Positions 1,690 through 40,323 of a DNA stretch of 40,323 nucleotides are shown in pieces. Below the pieces are notes generated by a model that saw only the letters and a list, made by a program, of their open reading frames with translations, was not told the DNA's origin and searched no databases. Position 1 is the first letter of the stretch. The number at the start of each line of letters is the position of its first letter. Origin of the DNA: a virus (Duplodnaviria > Heunggongvirae > Uroviricota > Caudoviricetes); the IMG/VR virus record IMGVR_UViG_2695420876_000014; one strand, given 5' to 3'. A program made the translations under genes and the position numbers.

Positions 1690-1704
1690 TGGTGTCCCCT
1701 GCAG
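1690..1704. repeat. prophage attR core, tggtgtcccctgcag, matching the reverse complement of the argW tRNA-Arg 3' end
   Basis: 15-nt string equals the reverse complement of the acceptor-stem/CCA end of argW as I recall it; lies 74 bp from torI at the boundary between host-like and phage-like DNA; an imperfect inverted copy (cagcagggga, 1720-1729) follows. Confidence 0.6.
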
Positions 1705-1777
1705 ACATCTACTTGAGGCAGCAGGGGATTGATTGGAATGGTGTTTTTGAGATATGAGAAATATTTTACCCGCTATT

Positions 1778-1978
1778 TTACCCATTGGCGCGGCTTAAGA
1801 GCTTATTTTTGAATTCACAATGGTCACGATATAACCATCTTGCTCGTCCGTGGATAACTTTGGCTTTAGGCAGGTCGCCGGACTTAATCCGGTCATAGAT
1901 GAAGGTTTTACCGAAGCCAGTATCGGCCATGATGAATTTCAAATCAACCAGTGAATCAGGTTGTAGTTCGTGTTGCAT
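1778..1978 (-). CDS. torI: excisionase / recombination directionality factor TorI (AlpA-like winged helix)
   Basis: 66-aa ORF MQHELQPDSLVDLKFIMADTGFGKTFIYDRIKSGDLPKAKVIHGRARWLYRDHCEFKNKLLSRANG recognised as TorI of the KplE1/CPS-53 prophage; placed next to the att core. Confidence 0.9.
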   Translation of the reverse strand: MQHELQPDSLVDLKFIMADTGFGKTFIYDRIKSGDLPKAKVIHGRARWLYRDHCEFKNKLLSRANG

Positions 1979-1996
1979 GAGTGCTATCTCCGAATA

Positions 1997-2012
1997 GGGA
2001 ATCGAACCTGCA
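1997..2012 (-). other. tRNA T-arm-like fragment (gggaatcgaacctgca), not a complete tRNA
   Basis: 16 nt match the reverse complement of the argW T-stem/loop region (GCAGGTTCGATTCC); the flanks do not complete a cloverleaf or an acceptor stem. Confidence 0.4.
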
Positions 2013-2020
2013 AATCAGGC

Positions 2021-2044
2021 AATAAAAAACCGCCATCAGGCGGC
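2021..2044 (-). terminator. rho-independent terminator on the minus strand, upstream of torI
   Basis: Minus-strand reading gccgcctgatggcgg followed by ttttttatt. Confidence 0.6.
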
Positions 2045-37374: not shown

Positions 37375-37395
37375 ACTAGTGGTGTGTGTTTTAAA

Positions 37396-37424
37396 TAAAC
37401 CACCTCTAAATGAGGTGGTTTTTG
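37396..37424. terminator. bidirectional rho-independent terminator between tailspike and the convergent membrane-protein gene
   Basis: aaaccacctc taaat gaggtggttt hairpin with T-runs on both strands. Confidence 0.8.
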
Positions 37425-37430
37425 CAAAAG

Positions 37431-38756
37431 TTATCTTTGAGTTCTCGCAAATCTAAGGCATAGCAACACAAAAGAGAATGCCACTAAAAATACAGAGATA
37501 TCAACAACATAAGCAATGCCAACAGGAGGCGATAACAGTAGCTGCAAAGATCTAATATAAAAAACAGCCAAAAACGAAGATGTAAATGGAAGCATGCAAC
37601 CTGAGTTTTTATACTTTGCTTTTGAAATCCTTCCTATTATAAAACCTATAATAGACGTCATAATTAAGCTTCCAATAAATCCAAAAAACACATATCCTGC
37701 AAGATCAAAGTGACTTGTTGGACCTCTTGCAATATCATCCCATGGGTACCATTGTTTCCATATCAATCTACCTACATCATTATCAAAATAGTTATATGAG
37801 AACACGGTTTTTACAAATCCATTTCCACCTATATATCCAAATAGCTGAATAAAAGGGTTTTCGACAACTATTCTATTGATAGTGTCGTAAGGCAGAGAAA
37901 AATAGTAAGCATCTCCATTTGCAATTATTCTCATAAGGAATAGCTCAAATATAACAGGCAAGTCTGTATACTGAGAACTGGTATAACCTATAGATTCAGA
38001 TGTAAACGTCAAAATATAAAGAACATATGCAATCATGGCTGAAAAAGATACGAGACTGATTGCCAAGAACTTTAAATTTATTCTTGGAGACACACCTGAA
38101 TATATATATATTGCCGCTATTGATACTAGCGCGTGTTCAAGAAGAGAGAACTTAGCACCTGACACAAAAGACGCAATAACAGCCACTAAAATTGCAAAAA
38201 ATATAATAATTGCTCTATTTAACTTATTTTTTGTTTTGTATATATTTATAGCCAGCATAGCTGACAATAACAATCGCACAACATCTAGTATTCTTACAAT
38301 TACTCCAAGACCTTTATTTGCCTCAAACCTTGATTCACCAAACGAAGAGAATGAAACATTTAATAAATAGTACGCTGTTAATACAACATACATAACAAAA
38401 ATAATCTTAAATGAAAATTTATAGTTGCTGTCTACCTCTCTGAAAAGAGCGTTTCTAAGACCAGCTATTGGCTTTATGTTTAGACTAAATGAAAATCTCC
38501 ATGTTATAACAAGGATAATAAAGTTAAGTAGTACCATTATGGCTAGGTAATCGTCTATGTACCCGTAAAGATATAGAATTATGACAACTGAATATGCAGT
38601 TCCAGAACCGAAGGCGAAAAAGTAGTGCGCTGGATCTATTATTCCATAGGTTGTTTTTCTTATTGCTTTGTAGCATAAGAACGCGCAAAGAAAGGTTAAT
38701 AGCATGTAACCAATCCAGTGTGTGAATATAAAACTGAAAAATTCACTATCGCTCAT
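37431..38756 (-). CDS. polytopic membrane protein, putative O-antigen modification / Wzy-like polymerase (lysogenic conversion candidate)
   Basis: 441 aa, ~10 or more hydrophobic helices, rich in Ile/Phe/Tyr/Asn, visibly AT-rich DNA; sits between tailspike and integrase where P22-family phages carry serotype-converting genes; no acyltransferase-3 motif seen. Confidence 0.6.
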   Translation of the reverse strand: MSDSEFFSFIFTHWIGYMLLTFLCAFLCYKAIRKTTYGIIDPAHYFFAFGSGTAYSVVIILYLYGYIDDYLAIMVLLNFIILVITWRFSFSLNIKPIAGLRNALFREVDSNYKFSFKIIFVMYVVLTAYYLLNVSFSSFGESRFEANKGLGVIVRILDVVRLLLSAMLAINIYKTKNKLNRAIIIFFAILVAVIASFVSGAKFSLLEHALVSIAAIYIYSGVSPRINLKFLAISLVSFSAMIAYVLYILTFTSESIGYTSSQYTDLPVIFELFLMRIIANGDAYYFSLPYDTINRIVVENPFIQLFGYIGGNGFVKTVFSYNYFDNDVGRLIWKQWYPWDDIARGPTSHFDLAGYVFFGFIGSLIMTSIIGFIIGRISKAKYKNSGCMLPFTSSFLAVFYIRSLQLLLSPPVGIAYVVDISVFLVAFSFVLLCLRFARTQR

Positions 38757-39171
38757 TTTTATTTCCGAATAGTTTTAAAAAAAACATAAACATACGAAAT
38801 TATTAATACAGCAATCACGAATGCATGTGGCTAACTTACAATTTGCATCATACTTTGTATTTATGCCATTCATGTTAATATCATTTTATTTCCTTGACAA
38901 ATCAACATTGTTACATAAGAAAGTTTCTTATGCAAAGTTAAAACCAGCTTGAAAATATTCGTTTGCTAACGAAATCAACTCAATATAGTCATTGATAGTT
39001 AGCACGTCTATCTCAAATGTGTTAAGAGTGATTTTGACATAAGAGGATTCTGTGCAGAGAATTTATACCATAAACAAAAACTTGTCATGGCGGGAAAAGA
39101 TGGATGCAGTATACATAATCATTAGATTACAATGTTCTGTTCCATTAGTTATCATTTAAGTGTTAGCTATT

Positions 39172-40323
39172 TCATTTGTCATCAAGCCAGTCAGCCCACC
39201 ACTGCATCATCTCCCTGCGCTTATCGAGATACTGAGCATGGTTGTAAATCCCGCGCACAGATCCGCCGTTGGCATGTGCCAGTTGCACTTCAATAGCGTC
39301 AGCAGGCCATTCGTGCTCGTTCATAATCGTGCTGAATTCATGCCTGAATCCGTGACCGCTTTCCAGACCTTCATAGCCGATTTGTTTGATCACAAGCAGT
39401 ACCGCATTCTCGCAGATTGGCTTCTTCTTATCATTGCGACCGGCAAAAACAAACTCTGATACTGGTTTAGTGATTGAGCTTAGCGTAGTGAGAAGTTCAA
39501 CTACCTGGTCTGACATAGGAACCACATGAATTTTGCGTCCCTTCATCACACTGGCGTCGATGGTGATAATCCTGTTTTCAAAATCGACGTTCTTCCATAG
39601 CATGGAACGAAGTTCTTTCGTTCTTAGGGCGGTGTAGCGTAAAACTTTAGTCGCAATAAGCGATACGATACTTCCTGAAAATGTTGCCAGTGCTTTGTTG
39701 AATGCCGGGATCTGGTCTGCAGGAAGAAACGGGAAGTTCTTCTTGCGGTATCCTTTCATGGCGTCTGCAAGGTCAGGTGCCGGGTTATATTTAGCCCTTC
39801 CGGTGACAATAGCGTAACGGAAAACCTCTCCGCATCTTCTGCGGGCTTTGTTGGCTCGCTCCATTGCACCGCGATCTTCAAATCTGCGGATTACTTCCAG
39901 CAGTTGCATCGGCTCAATATCCTGAATCTCAAGACCGCCGATGATGGGTAAAATGTCGTCATCAAACATTTTGGCAAGTTCAGTTGCATAGCCTACTGAC
40001 CAGACTTGCTTCTTGTGCTCGTACCATTCCTTGTAAATCGCACTAAAGGAATTGTTGTTAGACGAAGCCTTTTTCGCTTTTACCGGATCGATGCCAACCG
40101 AGATGTCTTTCCTCGCGGTCCATGCTTTATCCCTTGCCTCCTGCAAAGTCATAAGCGGATATTTTCCGACGGTCAGGATTTTCTCCTTACCGTCAATCTT
40201 GTAGCGAAGCTGCCATACCTTTTTCCCTGATACAGGGACATAAAGGTACAGGCCATTACCATCGAGTAGGCGGTATGGTTTTTCTTTCGGCTTTGCTGCT
40301 TCAATCTGCTTAACGGTGAGCAT
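39172..40323 (-). CDS. intS: tyrosine integrase, IntS/KplE1 type
   Basis: 383-aa ORF MLTVKQIEAAKPKEKPYRLLDGNGLYLYVPVSGKKVWQLRYKIDGKEK... recognised as IntS-like; catalytic region with R...HxxR...Y (GHGFRHEF...RGIYNHAQY); its start codon is the last three bases of the window. Confidence 0.95.
   Translation of the reverse strand: MLTVKQIEAAKPKEKPYRLLDGNGLYLYVPVSGKKVWQLRYKIDGKEKILTVGKYPLMTLQEARDKAWTARKDISVGIDPVKAKKASSNNNSFSAIYKEWYEHKKQVWSVGYATELAKMFDDDILPIIGGLEIQDIEPMQLLEVIRRFEDRGAMERANKARRRCGEVFRYAIVTGRAKYNPAPDLADAMKGYRKKNFPFLPADQIPAFNKALATFSGSIVSLIATKVLRYTALRTKELRSMLWKNVDFENRIITIDASVMKGRKIHVVPMSDQVVELLTTLSSITKPVSEFVFAGRNDKKKPICENAVLLVIKQIGYEGLESGHGFRHEFSTIMNEHEWPADAIEVQLAHANGGSVRGIYNHAQYLDKRREMMQWWADWLDDK

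Follow-up and report, generated by a model that had tools for sequence, protein, structure and literature searches.

The window analyzed here is the whole 40,323-nucleotide (nt) stretch of the virus record IMGVR_UViG_2695420876_000014 in IMG/VR, and all coordinates refer to it. Positions 1690-40323 very probably represent nearly all of a ~38.8-kb temperate P22-like (Lederbergvirus-type) prophage that is inserted at the argW locus of Escherichia coli and composed, as a mosaic, of many segments. The left end of the window (1-1248) is occupied by the host gene cscB, which encodes a sucrose/oligosaccharide permease of the major facilitator superfamily (TIGR00882, E = 9e-179). Phage homology begins exactly at 1690, where the att feature of phage Kapi1 maps and where the attL core TGGTGTCCCCTGCAG (1690-1704) was found, a sequence that corresponds, on the complementary strand, to the end (3') of argW, the gene for tRNA-Arg(CCU); the prophage start that had been placed at this position by an earlier sequence-only reading of the same DNA is exact. 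The 440 bp between cscB and attL (1249-1689) contain no open reading frame (ORF) of at least 50 amino acids and no match to the compared reference phages.

At the opposite end, an IntS-type tyrosine integrase gene (39172-40323, minus strand) was identified, whose product shows 98-99% amino acid identity to the integrases of Sf6, HK620, and Kapi1 and whose Pfam domain Phage_integrase was detected on an identical contig. The integrases of Sf6, HK620, and CUS-3 are 98-99% identical to it, and the att core annotated in these phages lies at the same relative position. The right edge of the window coincides with the start codon of int, attR and argW being located ~160 bp beyond it, and no tRNA gene was detected in the window by a tRNA scan. 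The missing end was recovered from a public short-read assembly, in which a look-up of the tailspike protein identified a Logan assembly contig (ERR124653_189, positions 1-22040) that is 100% identical to window positions 25335-40323, with 0 mismatches over 14,989 bp. This contig runs on into the tRNA-Arg(CCU) gene argW, 162 bp past the int start, and the tRNA gene holds the same 15-mer core; further on it carries yfdC, mlaA, yfdF, and fadL in a host flank that is 99.5% identical to the chromosome of an E. coli O114:H49 strain. It probably comes from the same isolate or clone as the window. Since the att core corresponds to the 3' end of argW and the contig continues into that gene, the element is a prophage of ~38.8 kb at argW in E. 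coli, inserted by the IntS-type integrase into the argW 3' end, between cscB and argW-yfdC. The integrase type and the flanking att cores equal to the argW 3' end place it among the IntS/argW prophages. Kapi1 was reported to be integrated into argW (PMC8787464), and in its layout, as here, xis marks the left and int the right end of the prophage.

Mosaic composition of the prophage

The sequence-only reading had described the element as a mosaic prophage and had proposed a comparison of identity per window, which was carried out by blastn against lambda, P22, Sf6, HK620, CUS-3, Kapi1, Huey, and phiKp_30, as well as the early regions of HK140 and AU5Stx1, with identity calculated per 500 bp. 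No uniform identity to one phage was observed, and the mosaic is real. Lambda aligned to 15% of 1690-40323 (94.7% identity in the aligned part) and P22 to 22% (85% identity), followed by HK620 (38% aligned, 90.9% identity), Sf6 (41%, 92.5%), CUS-3 (44%, 95.5%), Kapi1 (44%, 95.4%), Huey (46%, 96.9%), and phiKp_30 (51%, 95.2%), so that the maximum coverage by any single described phage was ~51% of the element. None of 50,697 phage genomes and none of 5426 complete E. coli genomes covered at least 80% of either half, and the element is thus not an already deposited phage; the best coverage of the two 25-kb halves in the complete E. coli RefSeq genomes was 55% and 78%.

About 20 segments with differing best relatives were distinguished along the element. 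From the left end, the best relatives were HK620 (1690-2424), HK620 and Kapi1 (2906-3730), Sf6 and HK620 (4105-4640), Huey and Sf6 (4500-6067), and HK140 (6018-7543). The next segments were closest to the Stx1 phage AU5Stx1 (7473-8360), HK542 (8340-9483), Stx2 phages (9446-9860), AU5Stx1 again (9836-13398), Kapi1 (13329-13611), and once more AU5Stx1 (13785-15673), after which HK620 and Kapi1 (15471-18104), lambda (17371-19720), Sf6 and HK140 (18451-19910), and Sf6 (20281-21171) took this place. Further to the right, the CUS-3 group was the best relative at 21001-29804, HK620 at 28156-31459, Sf6 at 30285-31981, Huey and phiKp_30 at 31501-33400, and Sf6 and phiKp_30 at 33389-35675, whereas 35686-39175 was matched best by rare E. 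coli prophages and 39176-40323 by Sf6 and HK620. The element may accordingly be described as a series of modules: an HK620/Sf6/Huey-like att-xis-early-left region; a Stx1-phage-like region from N through immunity and replication to ninB, closely related to lambda in O, P, and ren; an HK620-like roi-rusA-ninH block; a lambda-type Q-pR'-qut-tR'-S-R block; Sf6-like Rz/Rz1; a CUS-3-type TerS-portal-scaffold-coat cluster; an HK620/Sf6/Huey-like tail hub with ejection proteins; and a rare tailspike receptor domain with a Wzy-like gene.

A much simpler origin had been suggested earlier, namely that a lambda backbone was joined to a P22/Sf6/HK620 virion module and to P22 N/nut, with one junction at the immunity region and another after Rz. 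The lambda-type O, P, ren, ninE, ninF, Q, S, and R genes (91-100% amino acid identity), together with pR' and tR', the P22 order of the virion genes, and a nutL boxB that is the same as that of P22, are what would be expected of such a two-parent hybrid. However, lambda DNA makes up only 15% of the element and lies in a few separate patches, the nin stretches ren-ninE and ninF-Q are not of lambda type (NinB shows 45% identity), and lambda homology stops inside Rz, at ~19720, rather than behind it. N, cI, cro, O, P, ren, and ninB are nearer to the Stx1 phage (98% nt identity), while portal, scaffold, and coat are of CUS-3 type, the coat without any match to Sf6 or HK620, and the ~20 segments have differing best relatives. 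A simple lambda x P22 hybrid is refuted as stated by the per-window identity table, and an origin from two such parents appears very unlikely. What holds of the earlier proposal is that the element is a modular hybrid, a lambdoid prophage with a P22-like virion module; the two junctions and the lambda backbone do not. Early operons of P22-like phages have been described as highly mosaic, with recent exchange across the lambdoid group and often with a Q protein matching that of lambda, at 99% identity (PMC2629481), and their ejection proteins as highly mosaically related (PMC10883804). For P22-like phages, the extent of mosaicism observed here has been documented as normal (PMC2629481).

The composition could also have been produced artificially, if two lambdoid prophages of one genome had been joined across a shared sequence during assembly. 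Several lambdoid prophages with near-identical stretches are common in E. coli, the median genome having 2-3 places that match the window, and the exact combination was found in none of the 5426 complete genomes. On the other hand, the element is bounded by one pair of att cores that match each other, are correctly oriented, and lie at a known integration site, and each essential function occurs once, in the canonical order. Junctions are spanned by other phages, i.e., by HK140 at 14957-20413, by AU5Stx1 at 9836-13398 and 13785-15673, and by CUS-3 and phiKp_30 at 21001-31000, and the second contig is 100% identical over 15 kb. An assembly chimera is therefore extremely improbable, and a natural many-segment mosaic is the preferred reading.

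Early, immunity, and replication regions

The antiterminator N (127 amino acids; 7473-7856, minus strand; Pfam N_peptide, E = 4.8e-15) is identical to N of AU5Stx1 at 126 of 127 positions. It had been taken for a P22-type protein with P22-type nut sites. As to the class of RNA recognition this is correct, since boxB, the arginine-rich motif, and the C-terminus are P22-like, but the complete protein is of AU5Stx1 type: tblastn aligned it with P22 gp24 at 22% of its length, and the likeness is limited to the arginine-rich motif (GNSRSRRRER vs. GNAKTRRHER) and the last ~22 residues, without full-length homology. The nutL boxB hairpin GCGCTGACAAAGCGC (8022-8036, minus strand) is identical to that of P22. 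The nutR site (10946-10991, plus strand), compared with the nut sites of P22, lambda, HK620, and Sf6, consists of a boxA-like CGCTCTTTT and the boxB TCGCTGACAAAGCGA at 10977-10991, whose GACAA loop is the same as in P22. Both nutL and nutR thus have the GACAA pentaloop of P22, unlike the lambda boxB GCCCTGAAAAAGGGC. An assignment of N to the H-19B or 933W type is not claimed; only the match to AU5Stx1 stands.

The immunity genes belong to the same Stx1-phage relationship. The cI repressor (9887-10591, minus strand) carries an S24 autocleavage domain (Peptidase_S24, E = 3.8e-16) and is identical to AU5Stx1 cI at all 234 positions, as is Cro (10705-10938, plus strand) at 77 of 77. The putative OR/pR region (10610-10675) was assigned by a repeat search and a promoter scan and contains repeated TGATAAAT/ATTTATCA half-sites, and a candidate pL promoter in the OL region (8105-8133, minus strand) was predicted by a consensus scan within a stretch that is 98% identical to the Stx1-phage region upstream of N. 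The CII-type activator (11077-11376, plus strand) is 91% identical to CII of Kapi1, 86% to that of AU5Stx1, and 38-40% to that of lambda. Identities to the lambda proteins were 24% for cI, 14% for Cro, and 22% for N, and the element accordingly does not have the immunity and N/nut system of lambda. At the DNA level, identity to AU5Stx1 reached 98.2% at 7473-8360 (N, nutL, and the region upstream of N), 98.0% at 9836-13398, and 97.9% at 13785-15673 (ninB, dam, and ninE). The repressor, being identical to that of a Stx1-converting phage and bearing the S24 domain, makes inducibility of the prophage plausible.

No stx operon is present: between Q and S (18004-18692) the sequence aligns with that of lambda, leaving no insert of coding size, and no ORF of StxA size was found there. 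Its interpretation as a Stx phage was rejected, as no stxAB genes are located downstream of Q and pR'.

The replication genes O (312 amino acids), P, and ren (11409-13332, plus strand) are 95%, 97%, and 97% identical to their lambda counterparts and 99%, 99%, and 98% identical to those of AU5Stx1 at the protein level. Compared with AU5Stx1, 310 of 312 residues of O, 231 of 233 of P, and 146 of 148 of NinB are identical, so that by sequence the replication block is nearer to AU5Stx1 than to lambda, to which the DNA of 11311-13398 (end of cII, O, P, and ren) shows 95.5% identity. Inside O, six ori iterons of the lambda consensus were found at 11757-11879, as in AU5Stx1 (six) and in contrast to lambda (four); O is therefore 312 instead of 299 amino acids long, as annotated in AU5Stx1. 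The nin region (13405-17384, plus strand) comprises small ORFs, ninB, a Dam gene, ninE, ninF, roi, a homologue of HK620 HkbD, rusA, and the ninH interval. NinB (14519-14965, plus strand; Pfam NinB) is identical to the lambda protein at 66 of 148 positions (45%) and to AU5Stx1 NinB at 99%, whereas NinE and NinF are 92% and 91% identical to those of lambda (94.7% DNA identity at 15493-15830). The ren-ninE and ninF-Q stretches are not of lambda type, and 15471-18104 shows 96.8% nt identity to HK620. The earlier description of the replication and nin genes as near-lambda therefore fits O, P, Ren, NinE, and NinF (95%, 97%, 97%, 92%, and 91%) but fails for NinB. The Dam-family N6-adenine methyltransferase gene (14935-15489, plus strand; Pfam PF05869, E = 1e-64), classified by PADLOC as an orphan methyltransferase, is a nin-region gene shared with Sf6, HK140, and AU5Stx1.

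To the left of N, the early genes lie on the minus strand. The excisionase (1778-1978, TorI/HkaC type) is 100% identical in amino acid sequence to the Kapi1 excisionase, Sf6 gp18, and HK620 HkaC. It is followed at 2110-4581 by accessory genes assigned by Pfam (EaG, DUF551, Ead/Ea22-like, DUF7446, DUF2737, and the anti-RecBCD protein Abc2), whose DNA shows patchy matches to HK620, Kapi1, P22, and Sf6; Abc2 itself (4285-4581) is 93-96% identical to Abc2 of P22, Sf6, and HK620. The recombination genes code for a single-stranded DNA-binding protein (SSB; 4595-5101; Pfam PF00436, E = 1.6e-36; 98% nt identity to Huey) and, directly adjoining it, a Rad52-family single-strand annealing protein (5102-5809; Rad52_Rad22 PF04098, E = 5.1e-26, 91.9 bits against a cutoff of 20.3), which is 99% identical to Sf6 gp28. 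Homologues of exo, bet, and gam were not found in the element, and the replacement of these lambda genes by a Rad52-like protein plus SSB, noticed before, is borne out by the two family matches. The small genes at 5818-6661 include two ORFs 100% identical to Sf6 gp29 and gp30, a cIII-family ORF (PHROG 550), and ral, whose product is 98% identical to lambda Ral; the lambda DNA match around ral extends over 6296-6854 (97.9%), and from 6018 on the DNA is 97% identical to HK140. On the opposite, plus strand, a SieB-type superinfection exclusion gene (6875-7456) encodes a protein with an N-terminal hydrophobic segment and 82% amino acid identity to P22 SieB, for which no PADLOC match was obtained.

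Directly downstream of cI, at the position of lambda rexAB, a three-gene cassette was found on the minus strand (8335-9826), which ends in a tImm-like terminator (8335-8356). It encodes a DUF3024 protein (9485-9826, minus strand; Pfam; PADLOC candidate family PDC-S43, E = 7e-42), a soluble protein of 162 amino acids (8980-9468, minus strand) without Pfam, NCBIfam, or PADLOC match, and a 206-amino-acid protein with a C-terminal membrane anchor (8363-8983, minus strand), also without PADLOC match. The DUF3024 protein gave no significant sequence match in PDB, and literature on DUF3024 was not found. Even the cassette is a composite, of which HK542/HK244 account for one part and Stx2 phages for another, and all three genes occur together in 18 of the 5426 E. 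coli genomes. Judging by its position, the cassette may have a role in exclusion.

Late control, virion, and receptor genes

The late antiterminator Q (17381-18004, plus strand) is identical to lambda Q at 206 of 207 positions and 98% identical to P22 gp23. Downstream of it, pR' (TTGACT, a 17-nt spacer, TAAATT), qut, the 6S leader, and tR' were located at 18047-18276 (plus strand), with few mismatches relative to lambda 44505-45190. Lambda-type replication (O, P, and iterons, here six in number) and lambda-type late control (Q, qut, pR', and tR') are thus both present. In the otherwise near-identical Q-to-S interval, a patch of ~60 bp just downstream of tR' (18290-18350) is replaced relative to lambda. 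The genes for tRNA-Asn and tRNA-Thr, which follow Q in Sf6 and Kapi1, were not detected here by the tRNA scan (18004-18692).

The lysis cassette (18692-19909, plus strand) comprises S, R, Rz, and an embedded Rz1 (~19671-19856), a lipoprotein reading frame whose start was placed via homology to Sf6. S and R are 99% and 97% identical to lambda, and with Q and the few site mismatches they confirm the earlier view that Q, pR', tR', S, and R are near-lambda, whereas Rz is closer to the Sf6 protein (97% identity) than to that of lambda (58%). The lambda DNA match (17371-19720, from Q to part of Rz, 93.4%) ends within Rz at ~19720, and this position, together with the number of segments, disagrees with junctions at the immunity region and after Rz. 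Between the lysis and terminase genes (19946-21173, plus strand) lie three small genes assigned by Pfam and PHROG, which encode a hypothetical protein of 91 amino acids, a member of the Gp49/Sf6 gene 66 family, and a DUF2560 protein (97-98% nt identity to Sf6 and HK140).

The virion genes, all on the plus strand, follow the P22 order at 21176-37374 (TerS, TerL, portal, scaffold, coat, gp4, gp10, gp26, gp14, gp7, gp20, gp16, and tailspike) and have homologues in P22, Sf6, HK620, CUS-3, and Kapi1; on the identical contig, their products fall into the Pfam families specific to P22. No match to the lambda head, tail, and cos module (lambda 1-29000) was obtained by blastn or tblastn. The terminase genes (21176-23028) code for a CUS-3-type TerS of 146 amino acids (PHROG 309, E = 1e-67), whose DNA matches, among the compared references, only CUS-3 and phiKp_30, and for a TerL that is 99% identical to those of Sf6, HK620, and Kapi1. 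Portal, scaffold, and coat (23030-27484) are all of CUS-3 type, with 98-99% amino acid identity to Kapi1 and 97-99% nt identity to CUS-3. Overall, the identities of TerS, portal, scaffold, and coat amount to 97-99% with CUS-3, Kapi1, Huey, or phiKp_30, but to only 29-56% with P22 and Sf6 where there is any match to these phages. The coat protein belongs to the P22 coat family (Pfam PF11651 P22_CoatProtein); it matched the chain of PDB 8SKG with E = 1.6e-265 and the P22 coat 2XYY with E = 5.6e-39, and the shorter coat chains 6MNT and 2M5S matched its residues 222-337. Casjens and Thuman-Commike reportedly defined three procapsid gene-cluster types in 2011 (P22, Sf6, and CUS-3). The sequence-only reading had assigned the virion to the P22/Sf6/HK620 type; this is right for the gene order, TerL, the gp10/gp26-like parts, and the tailspike N-domain, but portal, scaffold, and coat are of CUS-3 type.

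A small ORF, gp4, gp10, the tail needle gp26, and gp14 follow at 27490-30740 (plus strand; P22_Tail-4, Phage_stabilise, and DUF2824 on the identical contig; 97-99% amino acid identity to HK620), and then the ejection proteins gp7, gp20, and gp16 at 30743-35170 (plus strand; Pfam P22_gp7, Inj_translocase, and SLT plus Phage_P22_gp16), whose DNA shows 95-100% identity in patches to Huey, phiKp_30, and Sf6. The nearest relatives change from gene to gene and even within one: HK620 for gp10, gp26, and gp14, Sf6 for gp7, Huey/phiKp_30 for gp20 and the N-terminal part of gp16, and Sf6 for the rest of gp16. With 797 amino acids, gp16 has an N-terminal SLT lytic transglycosylase domain (residues 3-103, window 32777-33100; NCBIfam matches), and this 797-residue form is shared with phiKp_30 and differs from P22 gp16. 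From the 99% identity of TerL to Sf6 TerL and from the tail-hub genes, we infer a short-tailed virion and headful (pac) packaging. The immI region (mnt/arc/ant), which P22, CUS-3, and Kapi1 carry between gp16 and tailspike, is absent from the corresponding interval (35171-35334).

The tailspike (35335-37374, plus strand) combines a P22-type head-binding N-domain (PF09008 Head_binding, E = 6.4e-63, residues 1-113) with a rare beta-helix receptor domain of pectate-lyase-like fold. Its PDB matches are confined to residues 1-259 and include the N-domains of the Sf6 and P22 tailspikes, which identifies the head-binding domain. The adjacent gene on the minus strand (37431-38756) encodes a Wzy-like (O-antigen polymerase-like) polytopic membrane protein of 441 amino acids with ~10 hydrophobic segments, which matches TIGR04370 with E = 4.9e-8, below the curated cutoff, and whose 99.2%-identical copies are named 'O-antigen polymerase' in RefSeq; no PADLOC match was found for it. 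Neither the receptor domain (from ~35686) nor this opposite-strand gene has a close match in phage records. Both occur at 99.2% identity in 4 of the 5426 complete E. coli genomes, including the O114:H49 strain 90-9280 and ETEC-2264. The copy in the O114:H49 strain belongs to a prophage with another head module: its terminase, portal, and coat genes have P22 gene lengths and share no DNA with the window. The tailspike domain and the Wzy-like gene may travel together as a mobile pair that couples receptor recognition with seroconversion. A more far-reaching proposal, that the element carries two lysogenic-conversion modules, with the cI-linked cassette (8363-9826) as a new exclusion or abortive-infection system and the tailspike-Wzy pair (35686-38756) as a self-matched unit of O-antigen recognition and seroconversion that moves between head types, is tentative and at present somewhat doubtful.

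Proposed life cycle and relation to known phages

From the homologues, the following course may be proposed. In the lysogen, cI would keep pL and pR off, and the three-gene cassette would be co-transcribed with it. SOS-induced cleavage of cI would start early transcription, which N could antiterminate on the GACAA-loop boxB, and Int and Xis would excise the prophage at the 15-bp argW core. O is expected to act on the six iterons and P to recruit host DnaB, while the Rad52-family protein, SSB, and Abc2 would promote recombination. Q, acting at qut/pR', would then allow read-through of tR' into S, R, Rz/Rz1, and the virion genes. The terminase is predicted to carry out headful packaging into a T=7 CUS-3-type capsid, which gp4, gp10, and gp26 would close; at infection, gp7, gp20, and gp16 would be ejected, and the tailspike would recognize and cleave O-antigen.

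Such a cycle presupposes a functional prophage. Every essential gene was full length compared with its homologues, and no insertion sequence appeared in the ORF list or in the family scans of the window, so that the earlier description of the element as apparently complete is reasonable; it applies to a complete-looking lambdoid prophage with a correctly placed left end, but the right end, with attR and argW, lies outside the window. A scan of the window with Rfam at gathering thresholds gave 0 matches. A defective or cryptic prophage that is complete only in appearance and forms no particles would agree with the absence of immI (mnt/arc/ant) and with a gene combination known exactly from one genome only. 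However, compared with functional phages such as Sf6, HK620, CUS-3, Kapi1, and Huey, the element has all of its lysogeny, replication, lysis, and virion genes at full length, both att cores are intact, the size of ~38.8 kb is typical of the group, and neither insertion sequences nor truncated genes were seen; Sf6 likewise lacks immI yet is viable. A defective element is thus considered unlikely, and the reading as a nearly complete temperate prophage at argW is retained. Gene identities, sites, and boundaries are direct observations, and several points nevertheless weigh against this reading: attR was read solely from the second contig, which may derive from the same isolate as the window and so provides no independent confirmation; the exact combination occurs in none of the complete E. 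coli RefSeq genomes, the arrangement being represented by a single genome; an inactivating point mutation in an essential gene would be compatible with the sequence; and induction, excision, packaging mode, virion formation and morphology, and host range or receptor are predicted from homologues.

The element is a new combination of known modules, all of which are already present in described phages or prophages. Beyond annotation it matters little, as a further well-formed example of pervasive lambdoid modular exchange. It does show that the early region of Stx1-converting phages (N, cI, cro, O, P, and ninB) also circulates on non-toxigenic podoviral prophages and that the rare tailspike plus Wzy-like module is now found on a second capsid type, and the repressor-linked three-gene cassette may be regarded as a phage-defence candidate.

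Among the known systems, lambda (NC_001416) shares with the element O/P/ren, ninE/ninF, the Q-R block, ral, and the lambdoid regulatory layout, whereas the lambda head, tail, cos, int, xis, exo, bet, gam, N, cI, cro, and rex genes are absent from it. P22 (NC_002371) resembles it in virion gene order, gp10 (93%), gp14 (94%), gp7 (83%), the tailspike head-binding domain (72%), SieB (82%), Abc2 (93%), Q (98%), and the identical nutL boxB, but differs in coat (29%), portal (35%), terminase (no match), integrase, and att site; the element is also without immI and gtrABC and has lambda-type O and P instead of P22 genes 18 and 12. The likeness to AU5Stx1 (NC_049920) is restricted to the early region (7473-8360, 9836-13398, and 13785-15673, at 98%) and includes the six iterons, with no match beyond 16557 to the AU5Stx1 stretch compared. 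In contrast to that phage, the element lacks stx, has the Rad52-family protein and SSB in place of exo/bet/gam and a P22-like virion module, and contains the extra 1.5-kb three-gene cassette between cI and the region upstream of N.

Sf6 and HK620 are closer in overall organization. They share att, xis, int, Abc2, the Rad52-family protein (99% to Sf6 gp28), TerL (99%), gp10, gp14, and gp7, besides Rz/Rz1 (97% to Sf6) and the roi-rusA-ninH-Q block (96.8% nt identity to HK620), and in both, a gene for a membrane protein separates the tailspike gene from int (Sf6, oac; HK620, the Wzy-like hkcF). However, portal (56%) and scaffold (33%) are divergent, tblastn detected no similarity in the coat, and differences also exist in immunity, N, and replication. 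The Wzy-like gene of the element has no detectable similarity to hkcF.

The argW-integrating P22-like E. coli phages with CUS-3-type capsids, namely CUS-3 (CP000711), Kapi1 (MT813197), Huey (PQ850609), and phiKp_30 (LC768498), differ from the element in cI/cro, N, the recombination genes, gp20, gp16, the tailspike receptor domain, and the gene beside int, and each covers only 44-51% of it. In CUS-3, Kapi1, and Huey, the place of lambda-type P is taken by a gene for a DnaB-type helicase, and CUS-3 and Kapi1 carry immI, which the element lacks. Nevertheless, the same virion gene order is found in this group, with TerL in all four phages, TerS in CUS-3 and phiKp_30, and portal, scaffold, coat, gp4, and gp10 at 97-99% identity, and Kapi1 in addition has the same att core and insertion site and an integrase that is 98-99% identical.

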